Numbered from the stretch's first letter, positions 33,016-63,975 are shown. The stretch: DNA of 64,000 nt from a bacterium (GCA_022709425.1 JAKLIW010000013.1:183-64182); one strand, 5' to 3'. The notes: generated by a model from the sequence alone, not told the origin. Made by a program: numbers and translations.

Positions 33016-33522
33016 ATGGGGCAGATGGAAAGAACGCTTGCGGTGATTAACGAACTTGAAAAGGGCGGGCTTGTTTCGCGGTATGCCATAGGCGGCGCGA
33101 TGGGCGCCACTTTTTATGTCGAACCGGTGGTCACCTTCGACCTTGATGTTTTTGTCGTTCTTCCGACCGACTCCGGCGGCCTACTGACCCTCGCGCCGAT
33201 CTATGAAATGCTTCGTTCCCGCGGATATCAAGAAGAGGGCGAATGTATTGTCATCGAAGGGATACCGGTGCAATTCCTTCCGGCCTACAATCCGCTTCTC
33301 GAAGAGGCGCTTGCCGAGGCACGCGAAACGATGTATGCCGATGTCCCTACCCGCGTCCTGCGTGTCGAGCATCTGTTAGCAATAGCGTTGCAGACCGGGC
33401 GCCCCAAGGACCATGAACGCATACGACTTTTCCTGAAGGAAGCGGATTTTGACCGCCCTTATCTAACGGCCATCTTAAAGCGCCACGACCTTGAAGAACT
33501 CTGGGAAAGGATGAACGGATGA
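33016..33522 (+). CDS. Stand-alone Pol-beta-superfamily nucleotidyltransferase (toxin-like)
   Basis: YAIGGAMGA...TFDLDVFV (GG..A / DxD), RPKD; 4-nt overlap with the small downstream ORF. Confidence 0.72.
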   Translation: MGQMERTLAVINELEKGGLVSRYAIGGAMGATFYVEPVVTFDLDVFVVLPTDSGGLLTLAPIYEMLRSRGYQEEGECIVIEGIPVQFLPAYNPLLEEALAEARETMYADVPTRVLRVEHLLAIALQTGRPKDHERIRLFLKEADFDRPYLTAILKRHDLEELWERMNG

Positions 33523-33725
33523 CACCGGAATTCGAGCGCATCATCGCGGCGAAAGAAAAGCGGCGTAAGGATTTGGCGGCGCTTTCGTTCCCCGAAAAAG
33601 TCGCCATCGTCGTGCTGTTGCAGAAGATGGTCGCGCCGATATGGAAAGGTCGCGGTCGCGAGGTCCATGTTTGGCAGATCCCGGCGGCAAACGATCAATC
33701 GGTACTTGCCGATCCTTCCCGGTAA
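33519..33725 (+). CDS. Small basic helical protein, probable partner of the nucleotidyltransferase
   Basis: MTPEFERIIAAKEKRRKDLAALSFPEKVAIVVLLQKM; ATGA coupling. Confidence 0.65.
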   Translation: MTPEFERIIAAKEKRRKDLAALSFPEKVAIVVLLQKMVAPIWKGRGREVHVWQIPAANDQSVLADPSR

Positions 33726-34355
33726 ATGAAACGATTCTCGACCATATTAATTTCTTTAGTTTTTCTCGCCGCCTGCACATCCCCCACCACGAAGAATGAC
33801 ACCGACACGGTTAAGCCCGACGGCGATATGCCGGTCTTATCGTCTACTGATGCGAAAATAATCCGTGAAGTCATTAACGACGACGATACAGTGACATTGT
33901 CCTCTGCTGACACGCAAAAAATTAACGAAGTTGTAAAGGAAGCGAGAAAAGCCATTCTTAATAAGGACACGGAAGCTCTTCTAAAGAATATCAGTGCGAC
34001 GAAGGGATTAACATGCACTGACACACTTTACACATACAAAGAAATAAAGAAATTCCTCCGTGACAAGAACAGTCATCTTTATATATCCTTGTTTGATACT
34101 GTTCGCTATTCGAAACGTTTTTCGAAGGAATGCCGCGGCTTTTCCTCAGAGTACGCTATAATCGCCGACATAGATTTTCTCCAAAGCGCGAATGAGTCGA
34201 TTAAAATTACTCCATTTGGTAACGATTGGGTTGAAGTCATTATTGAGTCCCCAATAAAAACTCACTGGCCTTTGTCGTGGGCGTTGCATAGAGAAGGTCC
34301 AACATGGAAGATTGCCGGGAGCAGTTTTATTATAGGGTCGTGTTCGTGCGGGTAG
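33726..34355 (+). CDS. AT-rich lipoprotein of unknown function
   Basis: MKRFSTILISLVFLAAC lipobox; starts immediately after the previous stop; visibly lower GC than the flanks. Confidence 0.72.
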   Translation: MKRFSTILISLVFLAACTSPTTKNDTDTVKPDGDMPVLSSTDAKIIREVINDDDTVTLSSADTQKINEVVKEARKAILNKDTEALLKNISATKGLTCTDTLYTYKEIKKFLRDKNSHLYISLFDTVRYSKRFSKECRGFSSEYAIIADIDFLQSANESIKITPFGNDWVEVIIESPIKTHWPLSWALHREGPTWKIAGSSFIIGSCSCG

Positions 34356-34421
34356 TTATAAATCATAATCTGTTACTGCAAAGTCGATCCTTCGCGCTGT
34401 CCATTCGAGTGAGGTAAAAAG

Positions 34422-34450
34422 TTGACTCATTCCAACCCTCCCGGTATTGT
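34422..34450 (+). promoter_or_regulatory. Sigma70 promoter of the GT2-deacetylase-folC-recN operon
   Basis: TTGACT-17 nt-TATTGT. Confidence 0.6.
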
Positions 34451-34492
34451 ACCCCGACCACGGCAACCCGTACCTGAAACGACGGAGACACC

Positions 34493-35212
34493 ATGGATAA
34501 GCGACTCGTCACGATAGTCATTCCGGTCTACAACGAGGAACAGATACTCGAACAGGCGGTCACCGGCCTCTACGCCGAACTGGAGCGGTACCGCGCCGAC
34601 TTCGATTTCGAACTGATACTCGCCGAGAACGGCTCCAAGGACAACACCATCGCCAAAGGTCAGGAGATAGCGAAACGGTTCCCCGGGATGTCGATATTCC
34701 ACCACCCCGAACCGGACTACGGCAACGCCCTCAAGGCGGGCATCCGCCGCGCCAAGGGGGAGATCATCGTCTGCGACGAGATAGACCTCTGCCTGCCGGA
34801 GTTCTATGAAAAGGCGCTCGCCATCTTCAAGGCCAACGGCGCGCAGATGATCGTCGGCTCCAAGGCGATGAAGGGGGCCAAGGACGAACGCCCCTTCAAG
34901 CGCAAATTCGCCACCTTCGTGCTGAACTTACTCCTCAAGATCATCCTCGGCTTCAAGGGTACCGACACCCACGGCGTGAAAGCGTTCCTCAAGGCGCCGC
35001 TCATGCCGGTGCTCGACCGGTGCCTCGTCGGCAAGGATATCTTTGCCAGCGAATTCGTGATACGCGCCGAACGGGCCGGCATCGACATCCACGAGATACC
35101 GATATCGCTCGACGAGAAGCGCGCCCCCTCGATACGGCTCCTCAAACGGGTCCCCCGCGTCATCTCCAATCTCGCCTATCTCTTCTGGGCCATACGGATC
35201 AAAAGAATATAA
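34493..35212 (+). CDS. GT2 glycosyltransferase (DPM1-like)
   Basis: VIPVYNEE, AENGSKDNT, YGNALKAG, DTHGVKAF, FASEFVIRA. Confidence 0.88.
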   Translation: MDKRLVTIVIPVYNEEQILEQAVTGLYAELERYRADFDFELILAENGSKDNTIAKGQEIAKRFPGMSIFHHPEPDYGNALKAGIRRAKGEIIVCDEIDLCLPEFYEKALAIFKANGAQMIVGSKAMKGAKDERPFKRKFATFVLNLLLKIILGFKGTDTHGVKAFLKAPLMPVLDRCLVGKDIFASEFVIRAERAGIDIHEIPISLDEKRAPSIRLLKRVPRVISNLAYLFWAIRIKRI

Positions 35213-35216
35213 CACG

Positions 35217-36110
35217 ATGCCCACCGTAGCCTTCACGGTCGATCTCGACCCCACGCCCGCCTATTACGCGATACACGGCCTGCAGTGGAACGGCGGCGCC
35301 GATCCGATATTCCAGAGCGGACTCCGGCGGCTGATCGACCTTTTGAAAGAGGAAGGTATCCCCGCGACGCTCTTTGTCACCGGTGGAACGCTGGGCCCCG
35401 CCGAGTGGGCGCTCCTGCGTGACGCGGCCGCCGCCGGCTGTGAGCTGGCCGACCACAGCTTCTCGCACGATTACCGCCTGTCGCTACGGCCGCAGGAGGA
35501 TATCGTGACCGATCTGAAACGCAATTCTTTCGCCCTGCGCGAGAATACCGGCATCACCCCGCGCGGTTTCCGGGCGCCGGGCTATAACACCTCGCCCGCG
35601 ATGCTGGCCGCCCTGCGCGAGATGGGCTACCGCTACGATTCGTCGCGATTCCCGTCGCTTTTCTACAACGCGGCGAAACAACTCCTGATCTGGATAAAAC
35701 GGCTCATGGGGAAACGGTCGGTGTCGTTCGTCGGATCGTTCCGCGATTCGTTCGGTCCGCAGAGCGCCTATATGATAGAGGAAGGGCTGGTCGAACTGCC
35801 CATCACGACGCTCTTCCCGCCGGTCGGCCTGCCGCTCATCGGCACGGCGCTCATCACCTTTCCCGCGCCGTTGGTCCACCTCATGGTCTCCCGCGCCCTG
35901 AAACGCGACTTCGCCCTCATCGAGATGCACGCGATAGACTTCGCCGAAACGGCCGACGGCATCGAACTGCGGCCGCTTTCGGACCGCCAACCCGACCTCG
36001 CCCACGGCATCGACCGGAAACTAAAACGGATACGGCGCACCATCCAACGGTTCAAGGAGCGCGGCTTCACCTTCGAGACGCTCGGCGCGATCGCCGACCG
36101 GCACCAATAA
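35217..36110 (+). CDS. Polysaccharide deacetylase (CE4/NodB-like)
   Basis: TVDLD, ATLFVTG, ELADHSFSH, GFRAPGY, YDSS, ELP, EMHAID. Confidence 0.85.
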   Translation: MPTVAFTVDLDPTPAYYAIHGLQWNGGADPIFQSGLRRLIDLLKEEGIPATLFVTGGTLGPAEWALLRDAAAAGCELADHSFSHDYRLSLRPQEDIVTDLKRNSFALRENTGITPRGFRAPGYNTSPAMLAALREMGYRYDSSRFPSLFYNAAKQLLIWIKRLMGKRSVSFVGSFRDSFGPQSAYMIEEGLVELPITTLFPPVGLPLIGTALITFPAPLVHLMVSRALKRDFALIEMHAIDFAETADGIELRPLSDRQPDLAHGIDRKLKRIRRTIQRFKERGFTFETLGAIADRHQ

Positions 36111-37357
36111 TGAACATCTCCTTTCTCGAAGACCTCTACAAACGGCGCGGCGGTATCAAACTGGGACTCGGCCGCGTCGCCGAGGCGTTCCCGGCCGTCA
36201 AACGGCGCGCCATCCCGGTCTACCATGTCGCCGGGACCAACGGCAAAGGGACCGCCGTCTACGCGCTCGACCATCTATTGCGGCGCGCGGGGCTCAAGAC
36301 CGGCTGTTTCGTGTCGCCCCACATCACCGACTTCAACGAACGGATACTGGTCGACGGGACGCCGATACCCGACGCGACGGTCGAACGGCTCTTCCGCGAA
36401 CTGGAGCGGGAGCTGGCGATATTCCCCGAACTCTCTTTTTTTGAGATAACCTTTCTGCTGGCGTGGCGCTGGTGGGAGGAATGCGGCATCGAACGGGCGG
36501 TGGTCGAGGTGGGGCTCGGCGGCCGGCTCGACGCCACCAACACCATCGACTGGCCGAAAACCGATATCATCACCTCCATCGGACTCGACCACACCCAGAT
36601 ACTCGGCCAGACCGCCGAAGAGATCGCGGCGGAAAAACTGGGCATCGTCCACCGCGGCGACCGGCTTCTGCTCGGCCCCACCATCCCGGCCGACCTCGCC
36701 GCCCGTATGGAACAGGATGCACTTGCGGCGGGCGCACTGCTGGTGGAAAAGGGACCGGTGACCGTGCCCGACCGCTTCATGCCGCCGACGCAGATGTCGC
36801 TCTCGTCCGAACAGCAGGCCAATCTCCACCTTGCCCACCGCGCGGTCACGCTGACCGAAGGACGGGAGATCGCCCCCGACTTCTCGGAACTTTTCATACC
36901 GGGCCGCTTCCAGCGACTTCACGACCGCATCATACTCGATGTCGCCCACAATCCCCCCGCCATGCAGGCGCTGGTGAAGCACCTCGCGGCCCAGCGGCTG
37001 CGGCCCTCGCTCCTCTTCGGCGCGATGAAGGATAAGGACATCACCGCGATGCTCGACCTCATCGCCCCGGCGGTCGGCGATATCTTCGTGGTGGGGCTCG
37101 ATACCGGCGGCGATCGCGGGGCATCGGTGGCGGAGTTGACCAACCGCGCCGCCGCGCCGCTGAGACCTCACCTGCGGCACGCCGCCGATGCCGAGGCGAC
37201 AATGGCCGCCGCGCTGGAAAGCCTGTGTCATACCCACGCACCGCTACTGGTCACCGGCAGTTTCTTTTTGCTGGAGCGGTTCATCGGTTTCATCAACTCG
37301 CCGAAAGGAAAAGAAATGCTTTCTCATTTGCAATCGGGCCCGAGAGGTCTGCGGTGA
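36110..37357 (+). CDS. folC: Folylpolyglutamate synthase/dihydrofolate synthase
   Basis: HVAGTNGKGT, FVSPHITDFNERI, SFFE, EVGLGGRLDATN, EKLGI, PGRFQ, DVAHNP. Confidence 0.93.
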   Translation: MNISFLEDLYKRRGGIKLGLGRVAEAFPAVKRRAIPVYHVAGTNGKGTAVYALDHLLRRAGLKTGCFVSPHITDFNERILVDGTPIPDATVERLFRELERELAIFPELSFFEITFLLAWRWWEECGIERAVVEVGLGGRLDATNTIDWPKTDIITSIGLDHTQILGQTAEEIAAEKLGIVHRGDRLLLGPTIPADLAARMEQDALAAGALLVEKGPVTVPDRFMPPTQMSLSSEQQANLHLAHRAVTLTEGREIAPDFSELFIPGRFQRLHDRIILDVAHNPPAMQALVKHLAAQRLRPSLLFGAMKDKDITAMLDLIAPAVGDIFVVGLDTGGDRGASVAELTNRAAAPLRPHLRHAADAEATMAAALESLCHTHAPLLVTGSFFLLERFIGFINSPKGKEMLSHLQSGPRGLR

Positions 37358-38982: not shown

Positions 38983-38984
38983 TC

Positions 38985-39707: not shown

Positions 39708-39708
39708 C

Positions 39709-43560: not shown

Positions 43561-43836
43561 TTACCGCTGCTGGTCGTCCGATCCACGGATGGTGATGACG
43601 ACATCCTTTTGCTGGCGGCCCTGCGCCTGCGCCATCTCGCGGGCGGCGCGGCGGGCGAAAAAGTAGGTCTTCAGAAGCAGGAACGGCATTTTTATCAGCA
43701 TGATCGGCAACTGGACAAGGCATCCCAGACAACCGCTTGAATAGACCACCTGTTGATTAACGACCACACGCGGCGGGGCGTCACCACGCCGGTCGTCGCG
43801 CTCGATGACCTCGACCTTCTCTATCTCTTGGGGCAT
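43561..43836 (-). CDS. Small single-TM hypothetical protein
   Basis: 91 aa with a hydrophobic core GCLGCLVQLPIMLIKMPFLLL; weak SD. Confidence 0.5.
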   Translation of the reverse strand: MPQEIEKVEVIERDDRRGDAPPRVVVNQQVVYSSGCLGCLVQLPIMLIKMPFLLLKTYFFARRAAREMAQAQGRQQKDVVITIRGSDDQQR

Positions 43837-43843
43837 GGGGTTT

Positions 43844-44227
43844 TTACTTGTGCTTTTTAGTCAGTCGTTTCGCTTTCTCGTCGGCTCCGTAGGTTGCCGC
43901 TTTTTCGCGGATGATCCCGACAAGCGACCTCGTAATCGTCCCGCGCCGTAACACATTCTTCCGTGCCGCGTGGATGACCGCCAACACTTCGATCAGTTCA
44001 TCCGACATGCGATAGATGACACGATAATGCCCGTAGAGCACTTGACGGATATTCGGCTGACGGTATTCAGGGACCGATCTGCCTAAACGCGGATATTCTT
44101 CAAGCCGTTCAACCAAGGCAACGATCTGAAAAACGGTGAGTTCCGCATATGCGAGGGAATCACGGGCGATGTACTCTTTTATCCCTTCAAGGTCGACGGC
44201 CGCCGGGTCGGTCCATTCAATGCGCAT
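43844..44227 (-). CDS. RelE/ParE-family toxin
   Basis: MRIEWTDPAAVDLEGIKEYI..YPRLGRSVPE..YRVIYR..EVLAVIHAAR; overlaps the antitoxin stop. Confidence 0.9.
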   Translation of the reverse strand: MRIEWTDPAAVDLEGIKEYIARDSLAYAELTVFQIVALVERLEEYPRLGRSVPEYRQPNIRQVLYGHYRVIYRMSDELIEVLAVIHAARKNVLRRGTITRSLVGIIREKAATYGADEKAKRLTKKHK

Positions 44228-44408
44228 GGACAGAAAGCCGCTTCTTTAATTCGGCGTGTGATATCGTACGACCTTCTTCGGCCGCTTTGAGGCCGTTCTC
44301 TATTTTCCCTCTGACATAAAGTTCGTACATCAGGTCATCCCAAGATGCGTTCTTGGGCAAAGAGTCGATGACCTTCCGTGCTTTGTCGACCGCCGCTGTA
44401 GGTTCCAT
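44217..44408 (-). CDS. Type II antitoxin
   Basis: Start after GGAGG; LPKNASWDDLMYELYVRGKIENGLKAAEEGRTISHAELKKR; lies upstream of and overlaps the toxin. Confidence 0.85.
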   Translation of the reverse strand: MEPTAAVDKARKVIDSLPKNASWDDLMYELYVRGKIENGLKAAEEGRTISHAELKKRLSVHAH

Positions 44409-44433
44409 GACATCCTCCAAAAGTCGTCGGCCC

Positions 44434-44461
44434 ATTATATCGGCCTTTTATCGATAATCAA
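44434..44461 (-). promoter_or_regulatory. TA promoter with operator palindrome
   Basis: TTGATT-16 nt-TATAAT; perfect palindrome TTATCGATAA (44448-44457) overlapping the -35. Confidence 0.7.
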
Positions 44462-44482: not shown

Positions 44483-45010
44483 CTATTTCGGCAGATAGTC
44501 AAACTCTACTTGGTTCTTTCCGTAACAGTTGTCGGCATCGAACTCTATCATAAAATGCCCCGAAATGTCCTGACGATACACATATGCGCGAACTTGCGTC
44601 AATTCCCGATCACAAACGGTCGTCGTGTAGTCCTGCATTCCAATGTACTCATACTCCACCATCCCAATGCTGGGGTTGGGTATTTTCTGCTTGTTTAGCA
44701 CATCGCATCCACTGGTCCCGCAGGGATATCCGCTGGAGCCAGTGACCAGAAGGCCATCAACAAGCGCTGCATCGTACACGCCAAGGTGAAGACGTGTCGC
44801 GACAACGATCTTCTCCCCGTTCTCGATCCGGTAAAGACGAACATTACCAGCCAAATAATCGCCGGCATCACAATATAAATAAGTACAGTTATGCTCCTCC
44901 GGCAACAGAACGGTCACCTTTCTTCCATCGATCTCCACTTTTAATGAGTCGTTGTCACAAGCCACGAAGCACAAAAGCACGGCGACAAGAATGAAAAGGT
45001 ACTTGGTCAT
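44483..45010 (-). CDS. Lipoprotein of unknown function
   Basis: MTKYLFILVAVLLCFVAC lipobox; ATG overlaps the upstream stop. Confidence 0.72.
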   Translation of the reverse strand: MTKYLFILVAVLLCFVACDNDSLKVEIDGRKVTVLLPEEHNCTYLYCDAGDYLAGNVRLYRIENGEKIVVATRLHLGVYDAALVDGLLVTGSSGYPCGTSGCDVLNKQKIPNPSIGMVEYEYIGMQDYTTTVCDRELTQVRAYVYRQDISGHFMIEFDADNCYGKNQVEFDYLPK

Positions 45011-45606
45011 GGACAATTTTCCTGTGGGATGGGTATGGTGCCGCTCCCCTGCGATAGGTCGAACGAACCTGACCAAACTGCGGTCTCCCCCTTATCTTCC
45101 GACTCATATACGACATGACGTACGACCGTTACCGGCACCACGCCCGACTCGATCCCGAGCAGTACCGTCTCGTAATCAAAAGAGCAAATACAATTTGCCG
45201 CGCCGTGGGGAAGTTCCCATTCTATGATCTTATACCCCGCCTCATCCTTGATAGCTTCAGTCTCAAGTCCGCCTTCCGCGCCGCAGTTGAGAACGATATC
45301 CTCGTGACGCACCGTCAGGCGTTGGGTCTCGGGATCATAGCTCCAATTGAGTGTTTCGTCACAGGAGGCAGCCATCCTGACCTGCGCCTTTTCGGGTTCA
45401 AAGCCGCCACAGGCACTTGTGCGCCCCTCGAACGCCACCGGCTGGATATCGTCGGTTATTGCCGCGTCATCATCGACAGTAGAATTGTCGACAGCGTTCT
45501 TGTCCGGCGGAAGCACGGCGCAGCCCTCATCGTCACCAGACGCGCAGGTCTCACATCCCACACAAAGAACAAACGCGGCAAGAAGGATGAAAAGGTACTT
45601 GGTCAT
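45007..45606 (-). CDS. Lipoprotein of unknown function with acidic linker
   Basis: MTKYLFILLAAFVLCVGC lipobox; GGAGG SD; Cys motifs CGGF, LNC, CICSF. Confidence 0.75.
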   Translation of the reverse strand: MTKYLFILLAAFVLCVGCETCASGDDEGCAVLPPDKNAVDNSTVDDDAAITDDIQPVAFEGRTSACGGFEPEKAQVRMAASCDETLNWSYDPETQRLTVRHEDIVLNCGAEGGLETEAIKDEAGYKIIEWELPHGAANCICSFDYETVLLGIESGVVPVTVVRHVVYESEDKGETAVWSGSFDLSQGSGTIPIPQENCP

Positions 45607-45654
45607 GGTCGCCTCCCCCGTGGTTTTCAGTATGGTGACAGAAACATAGACCTT

Positions 45655-46417: not shown

Positions 46418-48358
46418 ATGACGCGCACCGCATTAAAGACCGCGCTATTCCTAGCGCTCTGGGCGATGTTCATCGCCGCCTGTGGCAATGTCACCCTCAG
46501 CAGTAACGATAGCGATAGCCCGGCCGCAGACAATGACCAGCAGCCGTACAGTGACGACATTTTGATCGTTCCCGACATCGACGATCCATCGCCCGATGCA
46601 GGGAGCGACGATATCGCGACCGACATTCACCAGTCCGACGATGACCAGCTCATTGTTACCGACGACGATACTGTGATCGTCGACGACACTCTGCCCGACC
46701 AAGACATATCCGACGATACGCCACTCGACTCGGAGTTGGAACCGGATATCGACAATATGTCCGATATCGATGTGGACGCCGATGTCGAACTGCCGTCCGG
46801 CGACGACGACGGCGACGGTATCCCCAATAATGTCGAAGGAGCGGGAGACAAGGACCTGGACGGGCTCCCGAATTGGCTCGATCTCGATTCCGACGGCGAC
46901 GGCATACGCGATGATGATGAAGCGGGTCCCGACCCAGAGGAACCGCAGGACGGCGACGGCGACGGACACCCCGACTATCTCGACAAGGATTCCGATAATG
47001 ACGGTCTTTCGGATCATGAAGAGGTGGTGGCGGGGACCGATCCAACTCGAAAAGACACCGACAGTGACGGCGACGAGGACCTCGCAGAGATCGTCCACGG
47101 CTCCGATCCGACCGACCCGACCGACAAAATACCCGGCGAACCGACAGCTATATATGTAGTTACGCCTTATCAAGAGAACCCCGGTGAGGGCCGTACGCGT
47201 TCACTCTCCTTTTCAACCGATTTCTCGAAACTTGATGTCGCCATCCTGCTCGATCTGTCCGGTTCGATGGGGGAAGAGATGCTCGAATTGAAGAACGGCA
47301 TAAAAACCGGATTTTTCGACGGCATCGGGACGCGATTGTCGGGTGTCGATCTGTCGATGGGATTGGCCCACTTCATGGATATGGCGAACGGTCAGGTCTT
47401 TGCGGTCGATCAGAAGATGACGACCGACGCGGAGTCCCTGCAGGTCGCCGCAGAGAATCTTCCCGAAATGGCGGGGGGCACCGAACCGCATCAGGAGGTG
47501 CTCTATCAGGCGGCGACCGGAGAAGGACTGGTGGCGACATACTACACCGATCCGATGGGCATGTCGTCGGTTGACATTGACCTTCCGCCGGTCGACTGCG
47601 CGGGAGAGCCGGGGTCCATCGGCGGTCTGTGTTTCCGTAGCTCGGCCCTCGACCTTTTCATCATGATAACCGATGAGGCATTCCCCAACTTCGCCATCAA
47701 GGGCACGCCCGACTGTTCCATCAACAATCCCGTAGACGGCTGTTGGGATGCGGCTTCTCCGGGGCACACGCTCGACGATGCCATTGCCGCGATGAACGGC
47801 ATCAACGCTAAATTCATCGGGCTCGACACCGGATTCAGTTGCGACAATGTGGACCCGAACACGTATGAATGTCTCGGGACCTACACCCCACAGACGTTCG
47901 CCGGGCAGGATTACCTGCAGGTCGCGGAGGGTACCGATTCCCTTGATGGGTACGGGCAGGGCTTCTTGTATCACACCGCCGCTCCGGATGCGGTCGGCAT
48001 GGCGGAACAGCTGGCCGACGCGGTCTACGATCTCGTCACGGAGTTGTCGAAAGATGTGCGTGTCGCCGTTTCCTCCGCGCAGGAATGCGATGGGCAGAAC
48101 GCCGCTCAGTTCGTCATTTCGGCAACCCCGGAGAGCACCGATCCGGCCGATGGATATCTCTCCAAGGATGAGACTGCATTCTATGCGGTTTCACCGGGGA
48201 CGATCGTGTCGTTCGCCGTCGTCTTCAATAATCATTTTTGCGAGAACAGCGGCACCCAACCACAAATATTCACCCTTTCCCTTACCGCACTCGGCGAAGG
48301 GGCGTTGCTCTCGGAAAAGGAGATACAGATCATTGTTCCTGCCGGATCGAGTTATTAA
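46418..48358 (+). CDS. Lipoprotein: Asp-rich tether + TSP3-like DxDxDG repeats + vWA (MIDAS) domain
   Basis: Lipobox IAAC; DDDGDG, DLDG, DSDGDG, DGDGDG, DSDNDG, DTDSDG; [11 protein letters not shown] (DxSxS); GGTEP; MITDE. Confidence 0.85.
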
Positions 48359-48376: not shown

Positions 48377-50095
48377 ATGGGCTCGTTCTTTCGTATATTA
48401 GGTATCCTGGCGGCCTTTCTCCTGTTCGCCTGCGGCAATGTCACCCTTCACAACAGCGACGGCGACAACACGACCACAGACAACGACCTACCACAAAACG
48501 ACGATACTCTGACCGTGACCGACACTGACGGATCGGTGACGCAGGACGAGGATCAACTCGTCGCCGACAACATCCAAACCGACGAGGGCGCCGACGATAC
48601 GACGGCCGACATCGATGAGCTGATCACCGACGATGACCTCGACGGCACAGCGGTCATTGACGATGACACTATCTCCGACGATGACACCAACGATGACACA
48701 CCCGTCGATACCGACTATAATATCGACGCCGATATCGTTCCCGATGCCGATGCCGATACCGACGAGACGAACCCCAACGGGGACAGCGACGGCGACGGCA
48801 TCTCCGACGAAGAGGAGGCCGTATTCGGGACCGACCCGACCAAAAAGGACACCGACGGCGACGGCGACGAGGATCTCGCCGAGGTGGTCTATGGTTCCAA
48901 CCCGACAAATGGCTCCGATACGATCCCTGAGAACGAATATTATCTGGTCCTTCCTTATGCACCGGTCATATTCAAGTCGCTTTCCCTCTCTTTCACATCG
49001 GCCATCGAAAGTATAGACGTTGCCCTGTTGGTCGATTCGTCAGGATCGATGCAGAATGAATTCTCGGCATTGAAATCGAACTTCACCACGGAAGTATTTA
49101 CCCCGGTCAGAGACCACCGGGAAGATTCGCTGTTCGGTTTGGCTACTTTCGAGTGGCAGCCACCTTTCACTATCCACGAAAGAATGACTGATGACTCCAT
49201 GGCAATGAACGAAGCATTGGCCGCTATAGGAGATGCTACGGGCGATGACGAATACGCCGCCTCCGCACTCTATCTCATGGCGACATCTTCGCCGATACAG
49301 GGAACGGTCGAGGCTTGCGTGTCGGGTTTCGGCGGATGCGAACAGACGATGATACCTGATTCGATCTTCAACTACCCGGAGGCCGACTGCATCGGAGCTT
49401 TGGGAGAGGAAGGTCGCGCCTGTTTCAGGCATCGCTCAATGCCGATATTCGTCACGATAACCGACGAGTCTCTTAAAGAGTGCCCGTTGATCGGGAACGA
49501 AACGACAAACGATGCGTGCCGTTGGTCGGTCGGCGGACCGTTCAACAAGCCCGAGGCCACCGCAGCGATGAACGCCATCGGCGCTAAATTCATAGGCATC
49601 GATACCGGATTCGACGACAACGGGGTCCTCACTGATGCGTCGCTGGAAGATTTCGGCGAGATCGGCATAGCGACCCTATCGATCGACGATGACGGCAACC
49701 CATTCCGCTATCACACCGCTACCGTCGCCGCTACCGACCTGAATTCTCTGATTGCCGATGCGGTCATCGACTTCACTACGCGGATCGATCTGGACATGCA
49801 TATCGAGGCCTATTCGACCCAACAGTGTAATGCGACACCGTTGAAAGAGTTCCTGTCAAAAGGAAAAACCTTCAAGAGCGAACCTTCCACCGGCGTTCAG
49901 GCGTATGACGAAGAGAACTTCTATTCGGTCACGCAAGGGACCTTGTTATGGTTCGAGGCACAATTCATCAATGATTTCTGCCAGAATACCAGCAATGACC
50001 CGGTCGTGTATGAACTACCGATAGAACTGCGAGGCAACGGCTCCTACATCAGCTCCCGAAGGGTGTATATCATCATCCCCCGGAACATCCCGTAA
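48377..50095 (+). CDS. Paralogous lipoprotein: Asp/Thr tether + DxDxDG repeats + vWA domain
   Basis: Lipobox LFAC; DSDGDG, DTDGDG; DVALLVDSSGS; TITDE; shares ACGNVTL and AMNxIxAKFIGxDTGF with the upstream gene. Confidence 0.85.
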   Translation: MGSFFRILGILAAFLLFACGNVTLHNSDGDNTTTDNDLPQNDDTLTVTDTDGSVTQDEDQLVADNIQTDEGADDTTADIDELITDDDLDGTAVIDDDTISDDDTNDDTPVDTDYNIDADIVPDADADTDETNPNGDSDGDGISDEEEAVFGTDPTKKDTDGDGDEDLAEVVYGSNPTNGSDTIPENEYYLVLPYAPVIFKSLSLSFTSAIESIDVALLVDSSGSMQNEFSALKSNFTTEVFTPVRDHREDSLFGLATFEWQPPFTIHERMTDDSMAMNEALAAIGDATGDDEYAASALYLMATSSPIQGTVEACVSGFGGCEQTMIPDSIFNYPEADCIGALGEEGRACFRHRSMPIFVTITDESLKECPLIGNETTNDACRWSVGGPFNKPEATAAMNAIGAKFIGIDTGFDDNGVLTDASLEDFGEIGIATLSIDDDGNPFRYHTATVAATDLNSLIADAVIDFTTRIDLDMHIEAYSTQQCNATPLKEFLSKGKTFKSEPSTGVQAYDEENFYSVTQGTLLWFEAQFINDFCQNTSNDPVVYELPIELRGNGSYISSRRVYIIIPRNIP

Positions 50096-52163: not shown

Positions 52164-52280
52164 TGTTATCTCCGTATGAAAGTGAACGGTCGTGCCGGGG
52201 TGAGTCTAGATTGGTCGAACGGAAAAAGCAATGAAAAGCGGTGGAGGACTAGAACACGCATATATTGAGATGACCGTCGC

Positions 52281-52309
52281 CATAGTATCAGACCGGAAAT
52301 GAAAGTCAA
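52281..52309 (-). repeat. 29-bp direct repeat copy 1, equal to a sigma70 promoter upstream of the mutase operon
   Basis: Minus strand TTGACT-TTCATTTCCGGTCTGA-TACTAT-G, identical to 53464-53492; flanking bases differ. Confidence 0.9.
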
Positions 52310-52356
52310 ACGCTTAGTTGTCGGCGTTCCAGATAGACTTCTTTGCGATGAGGCCC

Positions 52357-52575
52357 TTATAAGCCGAGGCGCTTCCACACCTTCTCGCCCGCGATGACCG
52401 CATCGCCGGGGTCGGCCAACCTTTTCTCGGCTAGATAGATATCTAGATGGTCGAAAAAATAGCGCAACGAATCTTCGACAAGCGCATTGCGCGTCATTTC
52501 CAACTCTTTGGCTACCGATTCGATATGATTGAGCGTTTCGCTTTCAAGCGAAACCACTAACCGCTTGCGTCCCAT
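52357..52575 (-). CDS. Ribbon-helix-helix (CopG/RelB-like) protein with no adjacent toxin
   Basis: RLVVSLESETLNHIESVAKELEMTRNALVEDSL..D.YLAEKRL..EKVWKRLGL. Confidence 0.75.
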   Translation of the reverse strand: MGRKRLVVSLESETLNHIESVAKELEMTRNALVEDSLRYFFDHLDIYLAEKRLADPGDAVIAGEKVWKRLGL

Positions 52576-52578: not shown

Positions 52579-52742
52579 TCAATCCTTCAGTAAAACATCC
52601 TCGTCAGTCGTATCATCATCGACCGTGGCATCGTCGTAGTCGACATAAATGTTACCGTATTTCGGCGTGGCCTCGCCGCAACTTGACGCGACGACCATCC
52701 CCAGCGCCACGACCATCAGCCGATAGAAGTGTGTTTCAACAT
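52579..52742 (-). pseudogene. Frameshifted short lipoprotein paralogue of 52755-53423
   Basis: ATG TTG AAA CAC [AC] TTC TAT CGG. Removing 2 nt gives MLKHFYRLMVVALGMVVASSCGEATPKYGNIYVDYDDATVDDDTTDEDVLLKD* (53 aa); good SD. Confidence 0.75.
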
Positions 52743-52754
52743 CTTTTTCTCCCC

Positions 52755-53423
52755 TCACTCATCCGGCAGCAGGGCATCGTCGTCAGAAGAGACTTCTTCG
52801 AGTTCTATTTTCACATCGATGTTGGTGCAGGTGTAGTAACCGAAGTCGCTTGGATCATAAGTACACTCTAACGGGACACTGACCTCTTTATCCTGATACC
52901 GGCCGTTCGTCGCGCCATCGATGTCCATGACCCCGAGCATCGCCGTGTCTTGGGGAGACAAACCACAGGACTCTTGCTCTTGAATGAAGAAAGTTCCGTC
53001 GCTGCCGCTCAACACCTGAGATGTCGATGAATATTCGCTCAACTGGTAGGTTATCGCTATACCCTCTATCGGCGAACCGCCCACAGCGCTGACCGCACCT
53101 TCGACATGGAACTCGACGGTCGGGCATCCGTACAAGGTATCCTCAAACTCCGGATCATCTCCGTCCTCGTCGGGCACTTCCGACTCACTGTCGAAACCCT
53201 CCGCGTCAACAGCATCCTTATCCGGCGGAGTATCTTCGTCGGGATCAACGGGCACATCGAAATCGTCGTCGGGCGTGATGGTTTCGTTCTCGGCGACATC
53301 CTCATCGACCGTGCCATCATCGAAATCGGTCTGTTCGATGCCGTAGAGCGGCGTGCTGTGGCAACTTGACGCAAGGAAGAAACTCACCGCCACGATCATG
53401 AGCCGGTAAAAGTGCTTGAGCAT
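52755..53423 (-). CDS. Lipoprotein resembling radical-SAM-associated putative lipoproteins (xYGxP + Ig-like domain)
   Basis: Real start MLKHFYRL (the track's 1056-aa ORF is antisense to secA); lipobox ASSC; TPLYG; acidic linker; LYGCPTVEFHVEGAVSAVGGSPIEGIAI. Confidence 0.75.
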   Translation of the reverse strand: MLKHFYRLMIVAVSFFLASSCHSTPLYGIEQTDFDDGTVDEDVAENETITPDDDFDVPVDPDEDTPPDKDAVDAEGFDSESEVPDEDGDDPEFEDTLYGCPTVEFHVEGAVSAVGGSPIEGIAITYQLSEYSSTSQVLSGSDGTFFIQEQESCGLSPQDTAMLGVMDIDGATNGRYQDKEVSVPLECTYDPSDFGYYTCTNIDVKIELEEVSSDDDALLPDE

Positions 53424-53463: not shown

Positions 53464-53492
53464 CATAGTATCAGACCGGAAATGAAAGTCAA
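53464..53492 (-). repeat. 29-bp direct repeat copy 2, promoter of the lipoprotein gene
   Basis: Identical to 52281-52309; about 40 nt upstream of the ATG at 53423. Confidence 0.9.
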
Positions 53493-59002: not shown

Positions 59003-59013
59003 GGGAGGGGGTT

Positions 59014-59247
59014 GTGGAGAGCAAGATGAAACTGGTGGCCACCGTCTTCGAGGTGAAGATCAAGCTCTATAACGACGGCGTCGCGGCGCCGAACTTCTTC
59101 GCGTTCTACCGCGAGAAGATGGGACAGTTCGACCTTGAGACGCTGGTGATGCTCGACGGCAACCTGCCGACGGCCACCGTCACCATCGTCACCGAATGGG
59201 CCGAAAATCACCGCGATGAACTCTGGGACGCATGGGAATCATTTTAG
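59014..59247 (+). CDS. Degenerate DUF4160-family protein
   Basis: Fits the DUF4160 pattern (F..KIKLY..P.F.A.Y..G.LP..V.EWA..H..EL...W), but the DHxPPHFH histidines are absent. Confidence 0.65.
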   Translation: MESKMKLVATVFEVKIKLYNDGVAAPNFFAFYREKMGQFDLETLVMLDGNLPTATVTIVTEWAENHRDELWDAWESF

Positions 59248-59336
59248 CCATCACCCATTTTTCTGTTGCTAAAAAATAAATTAGTATTATTCTTCTCTTA
59301 TACTGGGTTTTGAACAACTTCTTTGAGGGAGGTCGT

Positions 59337-61202
59337 ATGCGGGTGAAAAATATTTTGGTGTCCGGGGCTCTGATGCTCCTCATCTTTGTCGCCTGTTCGA
59401 CTGAAAAAAAGCCGGGATTCATCGCCGGAGGCTCCTGCGCCGATGAAAACGCGACCGTCTGCGACAGCGAGAAGATGACCATCCTGAAATGCGTATCGGA
59501 CGGCGCCGCGCTGGTATGGCAACCCTTGATCGATTGTCCCAAAGGCTGTAGCATGGCGACCGGTTCCGCCGAATGTATGTCCGACGGCACTTCCGATAAT
59601 GGGACGGACAAAGACGCCCTTACCCCCGATGCGGCCGACACCGTTGCCGATAAAGATATCGTTACCGACGGAAACATAACCGATGACCTCCTTAACGACA
59701 ACCCCGGCAATGATAACGCCGCCCCCGACGATCTGATCACCGACAACACCGTTCCTGACGACTCTGTTGTCGATGCTCCGGCCACCGATGACACCGTTAC
59801 TGACGATCCGACGATCACCGATGACACCGCCGCCGTAGATGATGCGACTTTCACCGACAGCGACACCGTCGGTGATGACACCGACAGCGGCGCCATTGTC
59901 GATACCGGCCTGTTCAACGATTCCGACATACCGGTCTTCTGTCTTGAACCGTGCGCCGGCATCGCCGACAACTGCCTCTCGCCGATGGATTCTGAGTCGC
60001 CCGCCTCCTGCGACGGACTCGACAACGATTGCGACGGCACCGTGGATGAAGGTTGTCCCTGCCGCACCGGCGCCGTTCAGCCCTGTTTCGCCGGCCCGCC
60101 CAATAAGCGCAACATCGGCGCCTGCACCGACGGCACGCAAACCTGCGAGAATGTCGGCGGCACGCTGAAATGGGGTGCCTGCACCGGCGGCATCGTCCCG
60201 TCGAACGAGGTGTGCGACTTCACCGACAACAACTGCGACGGGTGTGTCGACCGCACCGACTGTTGTGCGCCGCCGATCGACTGCTCCGGAACTATGCCCG
60301 ACGCACAGCCGTTCCAAGACTACGTGGTGGACGGCACCGCCTTCTACAGCGGCGGAGACGCTACGAGTTGGTCATGGGAACTCTCCAAGGGGCCCTGCGA
60401 CATCGTGAACGGCAAGGTCAGCTATACGATGAACGGCAACTTTGTGAGTCAGGCCACCACGACGGCGTCGTCGATGACGCTCAAGTTCTATCTCTCCGGG
60501 CAGTACACCCTCACCATGACGGCCCATACCCCGAGCGGCGACTACAGTTGCAGTTGGGTGATCCATGTGGTCGGTCCGGGACTGCGGGTCGAGATGTGCT
60601 GGGACACCACCACCTCAACCGATGTCGATCTGCACATGGGACGGCTGGTCAATGGTCTCGGCGGTTCAACGACGAGCGATTGGTTCTCCAATAGCAATAC
60701 CAGCGAAGACTGTTACTACGCGAACTGTTCGTCGACCTGGGACTATTCCGTCAACTGGGGCTACTCCAACTCTCCCCTCGCGGCCTGCTCGGGTAACCTT
60801 TATGGCGATTGGAGTTCCGAGGGGGCCTGCCCGAACCCCCGCATCGACATCGACAACTACACCAATATGAACGGGGTGGCCGAGAACCTCAATCTGGACA
60901 ATCCTAACGACGGCGACAAATTCCGTGTTTTCGTCCACTATTATGATGACGGCAAGCCCTTTGGAACAAGGGTCACCTACCCCGTGGTAAATGTCTATTG
61001 CGACGGCATCATGCTGGGTTCCTATGGGGTATCGCCGCAGGTCCAAGGATTCGATAAAAGCGGCGGCGATGACGGCGGAGACGGCTGGAAGGTCGTGGAT
61101 GTCACCACCGATGTCACCGCAGGCATCACCAGTTGCACGCTCGATCCGATCTTGAGCGGCAGTGCCTATGTGGTGGAGACCGGTCCTTTCTCGTGGCCGT
61201 AG
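59337..61202 (+). CDS. Multidomain Cys-rich lipoprotein (CDGxDNDCDG repeats, PKD-like, YfaP/DUF2135-like C-terminus)
   Basis: Lipobox FVAC; D/T tether; CDGLDNDCDGTVDE, CDFTDNNCDGCVD; WDTTTSTDVDLH..DIDN..ENLNL..FRVFVHYY. Confidence 0.8.
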   Translation: MRVKNILVSGALMLLIFVACSTEKKPGFIAGGSCADENATVCDSEKMTILKCVSDGAALVWQPLIDCPKGCSMATGSAECMSDGTSDNGTDKDALTPDAADTVADKDIVTDGNITDDLLNDNPGNDNAAPDDLITDNTVPDDSVVDAPATDDTVTDDPTITDDTAAVDDATFTDSDTVGDDTDSGAIVDTGLFNDSDIPVFCLEPCAGIADNCLSPMDSESPASCDGLDNDCDGTVDEGCPCRTGAVQPCFAGPPNKRNIGACTDGTQTCENVGGTLKWGACTGGIVPSNEVCDFTDNNCDGCVDRTDCCAPPIDCSGTMPDAQPFQDYVVDGTAFYSGGDATSWSWELSKGPCDIVNGKVSYTMNGNFVSQATTTASSMTLKFYLSGQYTLTMTAHTPSGDYSCSWVIHVVGPGLRVEMCWDTTTSTDVDLHMGRLVNGLGGSTTSDWFSNSNTSEDCYYANCSSTWDYSVNWGYSNSPLAACSGNLYGDWSSEGACPNPRIDIDNYTNMNGVAENLNLDNPNDGDKFRVFVHYYDDGKPFGTRVTYPVVNVYCDGIMLGSYGVSPQVQGFDKSGGDDGGDGWKVVDVTTDVTAGITSCTLDPILSGSAYVVETGPFSWP

Positions 61203-61248
61203 ATCCGCGGCGATGCGGAAGATCGATCATTGTAACAGGGAGGCATCC

Positions 61249-62457
61249 GTGAGAGAACAAGTTGTCGTTTCGCTCTTTGTGCCGTTCATCATCTTCTTGC
61301 TCGGGTGTGAGAATGGTTCGTCCCAGATCCATACCGACGGCACCGCTGACTCCGACGGCGTCGCCCCGACCGATAGCGATCAAACAACGACCGGCGATGC
61401 CGACGATACTCCAACCAATGACGCCCCGCTCAACGACACTACGACCGACACTGATACCACGGTTGAAAATGATGTCGTCCCTGATCAAGACCAAGATATC
61501 CCCCTCTCCTGCGGAAACGACACCATTGACTCGGGCGAAGTCTGTGACGGCGGGCTGATCTCTTGCACCGTGCTGGATGAGGCGCTTTATAAGGCCGGAA
61601 AGGCCACCTGCAAGACCGATTGTTCGGGCTGGGACACCGCGACCTGCGAAAAGAAGCCGGCCTGCGGGAACGGCGAGATTGAAGAGGGGGAAGTGTGTGA
61701 AGAGAGCAACCTCAAGGATTGCATCCTGATAGACAGCGACCTCTACCGCGGCGGGAAAGCCTACTGTAGCGATGATTGTACCGCGTGGGATACTTCGACC
61801 TGCGATACGGCCGTCGATAGCGATAACCGCGATAACGATACCCCCGATGTCGTGCAACCGGATGCCGACACAGACACCGCGGCATGCGATAATCCGAATG
61901 TCGGCAAGAACTGCAAGACCGATACCGAATGCGGCACCTGCCTTATCTGCGTGAACGCGAAATGCACCGCAGGCTGTCAATCCGATGCCGATTGTATGAA
62001 CTACGCCGGCACGAAATGCAATACGAAACTCAGTCGCTGCGTGAACACGACCGCCTCAAGCGGTGCCTGCAACCAGAGCAACTGCCCGAGCGGCTGCTGC
62101 TATGCGACGAAAGGCTTTCAGTCGGTCAAGTGCCTCATGACGGCGGCGCTCGCAACCTGCGGCATCTGCAAGCAGGGAGAGATCTATATGGACGGCAAAC
62201 AGTGCGTCCCAGCCGCATGCAGTACCGGCGACACCAAATGCCAGACCTACAATACCGCCGCGCCGGATCCCGAGTGTTACGAATGCAAAGCGGGAGAGTT
62301 GGTCTGCTACGATGACCCCGATTGTTCCAGTTCGACACTACGTTTACTGAGCGGATATCCCGTCAATTCGTTCGCCTGTGTCGCGGCAGGCAACTCTTGT
62401 GGCCCCAACGACTCCTGTTGTTCGGGTCAACCCTGCATTCAAGGCTATTGTTATTGA
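61249..62457 (+). CDS. Cys-rich lipoprotein with myxobacterial-type CGxxxxxxGEVC repeats, shared Cys module and knottin-like tail
   Basis: GTG after GGAGG; lipobox LLGC; CGNDTIDSGEVCDG, CGNGEIEEGEVCEE; tail CVAAGNSCGPNDSCCSGQPCIQGYCY. Confidence 0.8.
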   Translation: MREQVVVSLFVPFIIFLLGCENGSSQIHTDGTADSDGVAPTDSDQTTTGDADDTPTNDAPLNDTTTDTDTTVENDVVPDQDQDIPLSCGNDTIDSGEVCDGGLISCTVLDEALYKAGKATCKTDCSGWDTATCEKKPACGNGEIEEGEVCEESNLKDCILIDSDLYRGGKAYCSDDCTAWDTSTCDTAVDSDNRDNDTPDVVQPDADTDTAACDNPNVGKNCKTDTECGTCLICVNAKCTAGCQSDADCMNYAGTKCNTKLSRCVNTTASSGACNQSNCPSGCCYATKGFQSVKCLMTAALATCGICKQGEIYMDGKQCVPAACSTGDTKCQTYNTAAPDPECYECKAGELVCYDDPDCSSSTLRLLSGYPVNSFACVAAGNSCGPNDSCCSGQPCIQGYCY

Positions 62458-62478
62458 TGTGGATGTGAGGGAATAGTC

Positions 62479-63108
62479 ATGTACAAAGCTCTCCTCCTTG
62501 CATTCCTGCTTATTTTCGCCATCTCCTGCGAGAACGAGACCCATCTGCGGCTCGTGACCGATCAGGATATCTCCGGCGATACCGATCAGCCGACATCCGA
62601 CGACACGGCCGTCGTACCCGATGACCATGACACGACCGGACCCGACCAGAACGATGCCGCGACCCCGGACGACGATCTGAGCGTTCCCTGCGAACTCGAC
62701 AGCGAATGCGGCGACGGCGAGATATGCGTCCTCGGGAACTGTGCGCCGGGCTGTAAAGCGGACAAGGACTGCGCCGCCTATCCCGGCACCACCTGCAACA
62801 CCGAAACGAACCGCTGTCTCAACGAAACGGCGAACGACGGCGCCTGCAGCGAAAAGAACTGCCCCACCGGCTGCTGCTGGGCAGAACGGGGATTCGTGAC
62901 GCTCAAGTGTCTCATCCCCCCGGCCGTCAAGTACTGCGGCACCTGCGCGCAGGGCGAGGTATACATGGGTCAGAACACCTGTGTGCCGGCCGCCTGCTCG
63001 ACGAAAGATACTCTCTGTCAGACCTATAACTCCTATGATTCCCGCGCCGCCTGTTACGAATGCAAAACAGGCGATCTCCTCTGTTACGACAACCCCGCCT
63101 GCAACTGA
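62479..63108 (+). CDS. Cys-rich lipoprotein paralogue (22-Cys module, no tail)
   Basis: Lipobox AISC; acidic tether; GC..D.DC..Y.GT.CN..RC.N..GAC...NCP.GCC..GF..QGE.YM..CVPAAC..CYECK. Confidence 0.82.
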   Translation: MYKALLLAFLLIFAISCENETHLRLVTDQDISGDTDQPTSDDTAVVPDDHDTTGPDQNDAATPDDDLSVPCELDSECGDGEICVLGNCAPGCKADKDCAAYPGTTCNTETNRCLNETANDGACSEKNCPTGCCWAERGFVTLKCLIPPAVKYCGTCAQGEVYMGQNTCVPAACSTKDTLCQTYNSYDSRAACYECKTGDLLCYDNPACN

Positions 63109-63112
63109 GCCC

Positions 63113-63149
63113 CATGGAACTCATCGACACCGGGAAATGCATCGTCTGC
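63113..63149 (+). repeat. 37-bp direct repeat copy 1 (start of lipoprotein gene)
   Basis: CATGGAACTCATCGACACCGGGAAATGCATCGTCTGC; 36/37 identical to 63939-63975. Confidence 0.92.
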
Positions 63150-63938
63150 AAGGTCTTCTTTCTGACGATCACGGTTCTTTTTCTGTCATCCTGCGAATCG
63201 AACACTCACAAAACAGCGCTCGATAGCGACGCTACCGCCGACCAGACGGAGAACGACCCCGTGATCATACCGGATGACGATTCCGTTGCCGATACCGATG
63301 TTGACGCCTACGACGACGCACCTATTACCGACAACAGCGCGCCCGATGTCGATCTGCCCGACAACTGCAACACGTATAATATCGGCCGGAACTGCCTAGC
63401 TCCCGACGAATGCGGTGCCTGCCTCATTTGTGTCAAGGCAAAGTGCCAAATTGGATGCCTCCGCGATGACGACTGCGCCGCTTATCCGGGCACCCTGTGC
63501 AACCGCAAACTTGCCCGGTGTCTCAATGTCGTGGCCTCGGACGGCGCCTGCAACGAAACGAACTGCCCAGATGGCTGTTGCTACGCAGAGAAGGGCTTCA
63601 GGGAGCTTAGGTGTCTGCAAAGTCCCGAACTGACAAAGTGCAGTGTCTGCGATCAGGGAGAGGTCAACATGGGCGAGGGGTACTGTGTGCCAGCCGCCTG
63701 TTCGACGACAGACACCAAATGTCAGGATTACAACACGTATACCGGGAAAACACCTGCCTGTTATGAATGCAAGGGAAACGAACTGATATGTTACGAGGAT
63801 TGCAATAACCCCGGATGCGACTGCGGAACTACGCTTATGCCGGTGAATCTGAGAAAGTGTGTCGCGGCGGGTGAAACCTGCACCAAAAACGACGAATGTT
63901 GCTCCAACCAACCCTGCATACAAGGATTCTGTTACTGA
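63114..63938 (+). CDS. Cys-rich lipoprotein paralogue with knottin-like tail and thioesterase-derived N-terminus
   Basis: MELIDTGKCIVC-KVFFLTITVLFLSSC; same Cys module; tail CVAAGETCTKNDECCSNQPCIQGFCY. Confidence 0.82.
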   Translation: MELIDTGKCIVCKVFFLTITVLFLSSCESNTHKTALDSDATADQTENDPVIIPDDDSVADTDVDAYDDAPITDNSAPDVDLPDNCNTYNIGRNCLAPDECGACLICVKAKCQIGCLRDDDCAAYPGTLCNRKLARCLNVVASDGACNETNCPDGCCYAEKGFRELRCLQSPELTKCSVCDQGEVNMGEGYCVPAACSTTDTKCQDYNTYTGKTPACYECKGNELICYEDCNNPGCDCGTTLMPVNLRKCVAAGETCTKNDECCSNQPCIQGFCY

Positions 63939-63975
63939 CATGGAACTCATCGACACCGGCAAATGCATCGTCTGC
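63939..63975 (+). repeat. 37-bp direct repeat copy 2 (start of thioesterase gene)
   Basis: CATGGAACTCATCGACACCGGCAAATGCATCGTCTGC. Confidence 0.92.

Follow-up and report, generated by a model that had tools for sequence, protein, structure and literature searches.

We analysed a stretch of 64,000 nucleotides (nt) of bacterial DNA (GCA_022709425.1 JAKLIW010000013.1:183-64182; G000:C5:183-64182 in our numbering, hereafter the window), in which three short direct repeats lie at expression signals among lipoprotein genes, at 44991/45587, 52281/53464 and 63113/63939. A prediction made from the sequence alone had proposed that they mark a mechanism by which genes for surface proteins are inserted where resident genes have their expression signals. 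We conclude instead, with a probability of about 0.75, that the repeats arose as side products when fast-evolving lipoprotein arrays between housekeeping genes underwent ordinary duplication, deletion and rearrangement, and that each of them has a separate origin. Ordinary duplication plus illegitimate repair, which the original prediction had kept as its own alternative, is the best fit. The intergenic slots of housekeeping genes (rpoD, recN, mutase, secA, rluB, acyl-CoA synthetase and thioesterase) host such arrays together with a few toxin-antitoxin (TA) modules, and the arrays would turn over by tandem duplication, unequal crossing-over, deletion and illegitimate joining. The survivors would be limited to products that keep a promoter, a ribosome-binding site (RBS), a start codon and a signal peptide; since only expressible products survive, surviving junctions would cluster at expression signals.

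The source genome, G000, is a 3.01-Mb metagenome bin of 75 contigs. It was compared with five related genomes of uncultured bacteria (G001 to G005), two of which, G003 and G005, are assigned by GTDB to another genus than G000, and with four independent assemblies. Between 30.9 and 64 kb of the window the conserved genes are rpoD, two GT2 genes, a polysaccharide deacetylase gene, a Mur-ligase-like gene, recN, the genes for an arylsulfotransferase, DUF2238, methylmalonyl-CoA mutase and its small subunit, secA, a pseudouridine synthase gene (rluB), and the genes for an acyl-CoA synthetase, DUF4160 and a hotdog thioesterase; lipoprotein genes and a few TA genes occupy the spaces between them. The earlier observation holds in part: the repeats and the lipoprotein blocks are real, while several gene identities and the proposed link to TA genes were not borne out. 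Pair 1 is 22 nt long and exact (44991-45012 / 45587-45608), within a 73-nt repeat at 71% identity; pair 2 is 29 nt long and exact (52281-52309 / 53464-53492); pair 3 is identical at 36 of 37 positions (63113-63149 / 63939-63975). Even with up to 3 mismatches allowed, none of the three has a further copy outside its own pair anywhere in the 3.0-Mb genome, and all are far beyond chance: the genome holds 1146 local repeats of at least 20 nt, against about 3 per 3 Mb in a third-order Markov simulation.

Pair 3 lies at the end of an array of Cys-rich lipoprotein genes, laid out as follows.

59310-63938, plus strand: Cys-rich lipoprotein array, with members 59310-61202, L1 61249-62457, L2 62479-63108 and a chimeric gene 63114-63938
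63113-63149, plus strand: pair 3 copy a, in which the chimeric lipoprotein opens with the 12 codons of the thioesterase start (MELIDTGKCIVC) and goes on with KVFFLTITVLFLSSC
63939-63975, plus strand: pair 3 copy b, the true start of the hotdog-fold thioesterase gene, MELIDTGKCIVCGKDNPHGF...

The chimera is a lipoprotein gene that carries the first 12 codons of its downstream neighbour, the thioesterase gene, which runs from 63940 to 64338, beyond the window end (G000:C5:64122-64520). Captured in frame, these 12 codons now form the n-region of a lipoprotein signal peptide, and MELIDTGKCIVCKVFFLTITVLFLSSC in the chimeric lipoprotein may be the stretch that directs lipidation. Paralogs of the array are 45-49% identical, with 49% amino-acid identity between the chimera and L1, and the succession of an intact L2, the chimera and an intact thioesterase gene is the layout expected for a chimera at a tandem-duplication junction. 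The order RluB-acyl-CoA synthetase-DUF4160-(array)-thioesterase-TPI is kept in G001, G002, G003 and G005. Within this frame, small Cys-rich paralogs number three in G003, three in G005, one in G001 and none in G002, and the array bodies diverge quickly (63% amino-acid identity between G000 and G001, versus 93-96% in the flanking genes). The chimeric start is also present in G003 and G005; because these belong to another genus, the event that formed the chimera is old. In G001 an L2 ortholog leads straight into the 37-mer, present once, and the thioesterase gene. In a tree of the Cys-rich core the chimeras cluster with the L1 (cys_61249) clade with 100/100 support and not with the adjacent L2, so that we rejected an origin of the chimera by copying of the gene just upstream of it; the G003 chimera has a 3' end and flank of L2 type. 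We propose that a tandem duplication of about 2 kb, from L1 codon 3 through L2 to thioesterase codon 12/13, would have produced L1-L2-(thioesterase start::L1')-L2'-thioesterase, and that L2' would then have been deleted (G000, G005) or fused in frame with the chimera (G003). L2' is absent in G000 and G005 and has left only a hybrid trace in G003; the event predates the split of the two genera, and its breakpoint microhomology is no longer readable.

Recent duplication was rejected as the cause of the 36/37 identity, since G003 and G005 also have the chimera and genomes with one copy show the same conservation of the 37-mer. In thioesterase codons 1-12, only 1 of 12 third positions varies across five genomes, versus 61% elsewhere (P=2.6e-4; the lowest of 121 windows), and this synonymous conservation is also seen in single-copy genomes. 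Pair 3 is thus nearly identical because its 12 codons are under nucleotide-level constraint, not because it is recent. Both ATGs of the pair lie 1-4 nt past the preceding stop codon, behind a weak Shine-Dalgarno sequence, and what is constrained is most likely the translation-initiation region. It is also conceivable, if quite unlikely, that the 37-nt thioesterase start works as a portable expression module complete in itself, whether for translation initiation or coupling or as a regulator binding site, which is under nucleotide-level selection and has boundaries that match the duplicated segment. Such start modules would then be reused as a regular, selected route for launching and co-regulating new surface lipoproteins, and would double as anchors for integrase-free gain and loss of cassettes.

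Pair 2 involves a promoter and a junction between an array and the mutase operon, all on the minus strand.

52579-53423, minus strand: SecA-divergent lipoprotein array, lp2b 52755-53423 and the short lp2a 52579-52740; signal peptide M[LF][KR]HFYRLMVVAL...C
53464-53492, minus strand: pair 2 copy P, the array promoter, in the SecA-lp2b intergenic region
52281-52309, minus strand: pair 2 copy P', an exact 29-nt copy of P (TTGACT-N16-TACTAT) within a 43-nt junction filler, 52281-52323
52357-52575, minus strand: RHH (RelB-like) antitoxin gene (NCBIfam RelB-like 9e-6, below cut-off), its toxin lost
52324-52350, minus strand: toxin remnant (HRKEVYLER), 27 nt from the very end of a RelE/ParE-type toxin gene that is otherwise deleted
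52249-52280, minus strand: probable 3'-end remnant of a secreted-protein gene, reading GDGHLNICVF-stop
52164-52243, minus strand: conserved 5' region that belongs to the mutase gene itself, matching G002 at 85 of 90 positions and also kept in G001 and G003; the conservation ends short of P'

Homologous three-gene arrays stand in the same place, divergent from secA, in G001, G002 and G003, and P is conserved there before the first array gene, at the same position and with 0-2 mismatches; lp2a, 48% identical to the N-terminus of lp2b, is a truncated member. P' is carried by G000 alone and is absent in G001-G005. It lies 1.18 kb from P and precedes the mutase start by 118 nt, beyond the conserved 5' region of the mutase gene. 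We had considered P' as the mutase's own promoter, duplicated onto a cassette; this was rejected, as the conserved 5' region excludes P' and the relatives are without it. Orthologs of the RHH gene in G001 and G003 (62% identical) are followed by an intact RelE/ParE-type toxin gene at the array end, and the toxin remnant of G000 matches the end of these toxin genes at 26 of 27 positions. The antitoxin gene described earlier as a solo RHH is therefore an RHH gene of RelB-like type, but its solo state is not original: its toxin has been reduced to a 27-nt remnant. On the minus strand the junction reads, in order, toxin remnant, 14 nt without a traced source, the P copy, the secreted-gene remnant and the mutase's conserved 5' region. 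The secreted-gene assignment is probable, as judged from a by-eye alignment to a G002 gene that ends in ...GDGCGCTLVF-stop directly upstream of the mutase. In none of the relatives does the mutase adjoin the SecA-side array.

The region from SecA through the array, RHH and P' to the mutase is 100% identical in three assemblies (ENA ERZ761563, NCBI GCA_035390685.1 and Logan SRR4244739); because these are independent, the P' junction is not an artefact. A strain variant, 96.9% identical, has the same toxin remnant and then the ancestral downstream sequence as in G001, without P', from which it follows that P' arose in a recent rearrangement as part of the junction filler. A strain-level rearrangement would thus have brought the decayed RelBE end of the SecA-side array up to the mutase operon, and P' would be a templated insertion made by template switching at the junction. 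P' may act as an extra promoter.

Pair 1 belongs to a third array, downstream of DUF2238.

44483-45606, minus strand: small-lipoprotein array downstream of DUF2238, lp1a 44483-45013 and lp1b 45007-45606
44955-45027, minus strand: pair 1 copy a, the 5' module of lp1a, made of a -10-like CACCATAC, RBS region, ATG and 8 codons; core 44991-45012
45551-45623, minus strand: pair 1 copy b, the 5' module of lp1b; exact 22-nt core 45587-45608

The two genes are similar in the signal peptide only. In G001, G002 and G005, two to three small lipoprotein genes directly follow DUF2238 and have the same RBS-ATG-MT[KRN]Y[LF]FI... module with differing mature parts. Since the start module recurs in the relatives' arrays, pair 1 is the front end conserved among the members of a local array; it would be a relic of tandem duplication, the mature parts having since diverged or been replaced. 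Two corrections apply to the repeat copies: the copy at 52281 is not the mutase's own promoter, and that at 63939 is the start of the thioesterase and not of a lipoprotein.

Genome-wide, predicted lipoprotein genes number about 300-380 and make up 18% of the G000 genome. The gene caller overlooked some atypical ones (33726, lp1b and lp2b), which were added manually, so that the enrichment figures given here are approximate. After a low-complexity filter 805 local repeats remained in 348 clusters, 193 of which lie within lipoprotein genes. We scanned gene starts for short repeats of 20-45 nt with at least 90% identity, 0.3-3 kb apart. Both copies lay at gene starts in 17 pairs (expected 7.6 +/- 2.8) and at lipoprotein starts in 8 (expected 0.24 +/- 0.46). 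The original prediction had named a lack of enrichment and a lack of empty sites in relatives as grounds for giving it up; we found both enrichment and empty sites, the enrichment being nevertheless confined to local paralog arrays. On inspection the start-associated pairs were plain paralogs, common gene 3' ends and a few promoter duplications, and about 10 repeat pairs combined a common 5' region with unrelated gene bodies. A signal-peptide module portable across the genome was rejected: only 27 of 72,390 lipoprotein pairs have at least 60% of the signal-peptide core in common, most of them with homologous bodies and the others at chance-level nucleotide identity. In this genome-wide lipoprotein comparison no start or signal-peptide module common to distant loci was found; sharing stays within local arrays.

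Isolated repeats elsewhere in the genome are of mixed kinds: a tRNA att site, terminator-like hairpins, repetitive extragenic palindromic (REP)-like sequences, gene 3' ends and promoters. A 60-nt direct repeat (G000:C2:66888-66947 / 68233-68292) corresponds to a tRNA gene 3' end and flanks 1.3 kb, as a classical attL/attR pair around a small integrated element or what is left of one. On contig C12 a 36/37-identical promoter (TTGCCT-N17-TATAAT; G000:C12:78775-78811 / 81294-81330), with a partly similar leader, precedes two unrelated genes, one of them ribulose-phosphate-epimerase-like, in a further instance of promoter duplication. A 53-nt direct repeat, 100% identical, lies in an AT-rich region (G000:C4:45040-45092 / 46852-46904).

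Beyond the three repeats, the slots between conserved genes hold further accessory and TA-like genes.

32961-34492, plus strand: accessory block 1, between the RpoD stop and the GT2 start, with promoter-like sites at both ends
33016-33522, 33519-33725 and 33726-34355, plus strand: block 1 genes, respectively a 168-amino-acid (aa) open reading frame (ORF), a 68-aa ORF and a lipoprotein gene
43844-44227, minus strand: ParE toxin (Pfam ParE_toxin 5e-17)
44217-44435, minus strand: ORF in antitoxin position upstream of ParE
46418-48358 and 48377-50095, plus strand: two TSP3-repeat lipoprotein genes, paralogs at 33% aa identity, accessory
59014-59247, plus strand: DUF4160 gene (Pfam 2.8e-9), with orthologs in the same place in G001, G002 and G005

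From the RpoD stop to the GT2 start there are 13 nt in G003 and G005 and 1.5 kb in G000, and G002 has other cargo there. G001 has no ParDE at the corresponding site, and immediately after its lipoprotein array comes the ortholog of 43561-43836, which has an upstream region of its own; in G002 the mutase small subunit and DUF2238 lie 176 nt apart, without the TSP3 genes. Together with the single-repeat state of G001, these empty or differently filled slots (RpoD-GT2 in G003/G005, TSP3 in G002, ParDE in G001) bear out the view of the blocks as accessory cargo. A gap of 7 nt separates the ParE stop from the ATG of the conserved 91-aa gene (43561-43836), against about 70 nt of own upstream region in G001, which indicates that ParDE replaced the upstream region of this gene up to its start codon. 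The G002 spacer between mutase small subunit and DUF2238 (L022, G002:C133, 1771-1948) contains two tandem REP-like palindromic units of about 40 nt (ACACCCTCACCGCTTTGCGGAGCTCCCTGCGACAGGGA). Some 70 nt around the block 1 signal peptide (window 33760-33833) recur at many loci in G002, G003 and G005 at 76-86% identity, and may be the front end of a lipoprotein family widespread in the relatives.

Four lipoprotein blocks had each been said to touch a TA-like gene. Set beside type II TA systems, the region contains a recognisable toxin-antitoxin pair in ParE and the small ORF upstream of it, an RHH gene without toxin, a DUF4160 gene without partner and the 168/68-aa pair without family match. ParE is well supported by its Pfam match, and DUF4160 is correct as a family; the latter has no partner gene and, being conserved and syntenic, is not a recent insertion. 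The 168-aa and 68-aa proteins, read earlier as a nucleotidyltransferase (NTase) pair, matched no family in Pfam, NCBIfam, PADLOC or PDB, and that identity is unconfirmed. Outside the window, 2 of 7 TA-type genes have a lipoprotein gene within 500 bp, versus 27% of all non-lipoprotein genes; this adjacency is at background level, and TA genes were rejected as markers of the pattern.

Searches for an insertion machinery were negative. The window had been reported to lack a recombinase gene, and profile searches extended this to its whole contig, where no recombinase, transposase or reverse transcriptase was found. In the genome only two tyrosine recombinases (PF00589) were detected, both Xer-sized (316 and 321 aa, on contigs C14 and C11); rve transposase matches were limited to a clear one on C25 and a weak one on C3, and there was no resolvase or reverse transcriptase. 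A recombinase or reverse transcriptase co-occurring with the pattern, for which a search had been suggested as a check, was thus not found. The boundaries of four indels relative to the relatives had neither target duplications nor terminal repeats. Block 1 ends showed no target-site duplication (TSD) and no terminal inverted repeat (TIR), only chance 7-mer direct or inverted matches, and the ParDE and TSP3 indels are bounded by stop and start codons, without repeats. Inspection of the cassette boundaries (block 1, ParDE, TSP3) revealed no attC-like repeats, no formal attC model having been applied.

These data weigh heavily against the idea of a dedicated, undescribed mechanism that would place surface-protein genes at the expression signals of residents and in doing so, perhaps by widely staggered cuts, would duplicate 20-40 nt of the target. 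The genome-wide enrichment of short repeats at lipoprotein starts, the empty sites of relatives and the roughly 10 pairs with a common 5' region and unrelated bodies speak for it. However, the three repeats differ in age (an old, cross-genus one versus a strain-level one), in position (promoter; RBS and start; inside the coding region) and in context, and P', rather than occupying a resident signal, sits in junction filler between two gene remnants. All relatives keep the P-P' array in synteny with SecA, so that it was not inserted there, the body of the chimera is a paralog of a gene from the same array, the four indels are clean, and no TSD, TIR or candidate enzyme was found. The comparative anatomy largely refutes such a mechanism, which we regard as very unlikely. 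That the repeats and junctions are assembly artefacts, from misjoined strain variants, is extremely unlikely: G000 is indeed a 75-contig metagenome bin and strain variants exist, but the P' region is identical in the three assemblies named above, the chimeric start is present in the independent genomes G003 and G005, and arrays at the site of pair 1 occur in three other genomes.

A further rival reading is homology-anchored cassette exchange. Here the 5' modules (those of the arrays and the 37-nt thioesterase start) would serve as short anchors at which RecA-type or slippage recombination brings about gain, loss and exchange of cassettes between strains with no dedicated enzyme, as in an integrase-free pseudo-integron. 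The one-repeat state of G001 is as expected from recombination between the 37-nt repeats, but it may simply be ancestral; in G003, and likewise in G005, the two copies of the 37-mer agree at a G/C polymorphism, but the G000 copies differ at that site. The in-frame hybrid of two array members in G003, with an extended repeat of about 80 nt, would suit exchange, as would the variation of array content in every relative while start modules persist. Yet 22-37 nt is at or under the usual length for efficient homologous recombination, and distant loci have no common start module. Exchange of this kind overlaps largely with ordinary duplication and rearrangement, and it covers loss and exchange but not the origin of the repeats; as a separate explanation we consider it unlikely. 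Several points nevertheless weigh against ordinary duplication and rearrangement themselves. All genomes compared are metagenome bins. For pair 3, the loss of L2' is an additional step that the model requires, the test of synonymous conservation in thioesterase codons 1-12 was post hoc, and this conservation breaks off precisely at codon 13, the boundary of the duplication, which is not what a generic 5'-end constraint predicts. For pair 2, the first 14 nt of the filler have no traced source, and template switching is our inference. For pair 1, the mature parts of lp1a and lp1b have no detectable homology, their paralogy being inferred from the front end and the relatives' arrays, and their bodies may have been replaced by recombination.

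Comparison with known systems points the same way. In E. coli experiments, spontaneous deletions or tandem duplications led to promoter capture, in many cases with 3-12 bp of microhomology (PMC6614815); another such capture is the Cit+ case of Blount et al., as cited in PMC3575422. There, as in the L2/chimera/thioesterase layout, a duplication junction sets a gene body behind a neighbour's expression signals with both parents intact, and breakpoints are illegitimate with no mobile element involved. The pair 3 case differs in being natural, old and cross-genus, in its in-frame capture of 12 codons and in a breakpoint microhomology that is no longer readable. Promoter reuse before unrelated genes has been catalogued as 'putative mobile promoters' (Nijveen, Matus-Garcia & van Passel, PMC3575422). 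P/P' and the C12 pair (78775/81294) may be of the same kind, as near-identical promoter sequences before non-homologous genes without a known mobile element; unlike the catalogued cases, P' is only 29 nt long, 1.18 kb from its source and inside rearrangement filler, which suggests a product of templated repair more than a moving element. Integrons and superintegrons share with the present region arrays of small accessory genes, many exported, mixed with TA modules and varying in content among relatives. In contrast to them, no IntI or attI was found here and no attC was seen (again without a formal model), the genes have their own promoters or start modules, and the arrays occupy several separate slots between housekeeping genes, with members that are paralogs born in place. 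Transposons and insertion sequences are a poor likeness, given no transposase on the contig and no TIR or TSD at the block 1 ends.

In the vsp, vpma and vsa loci of Mycoplasma, variable families of surface lipoproteins have conserved 5' ends, a site-specific recombinase next to them and inverted recombination sites in their 5' regions. Here too neighbouring lipoprotein genes have a common upstream region and signal peptide and divergent mature parts; unlike in Mycoplasma, there is no adjacent recombinase, the repeats are direct, no single movable promoter was seen and each gene is apparently independently expressible. Tandem multigene families are known to evolve by birth and death through unequal crossing-over. 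This is the frame that fits: copy number varies in close relatives, and there are hybrids (G003), truncated members (lp2a) and fast divergence of bodies, with nothing essential that differs. No new mobile-DNA mechanism is revealed; the window offers a well-resolved natural case of the way in which new surface genes, ready to be expressed, arise in compact bacterial genomes. At one duplication junction the first 12 codons of a cytoplasmic enzyme were borrowed as the start of a lipoprotein signal peptide, in a chimera retained across genera, and a promoter copy arising as filler at a strain-level rearrangement illustrates a second route. A caution follows: short repeats at gene starts, even with empty sites in relatives, are insufficient for inferring an insertion system, because the survivorship of expressible duplication products yields the same pattern.

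Two further observations concern the first part of the window. A tmRNA gene (16994-17343, minus strand) with tag peptide ANNELALAA is the sole RNA gene detected in the window by ARAGORN and Rfam, and the G+C content of positions 1-1000 is 39%, versus about 60% in the remaining window.

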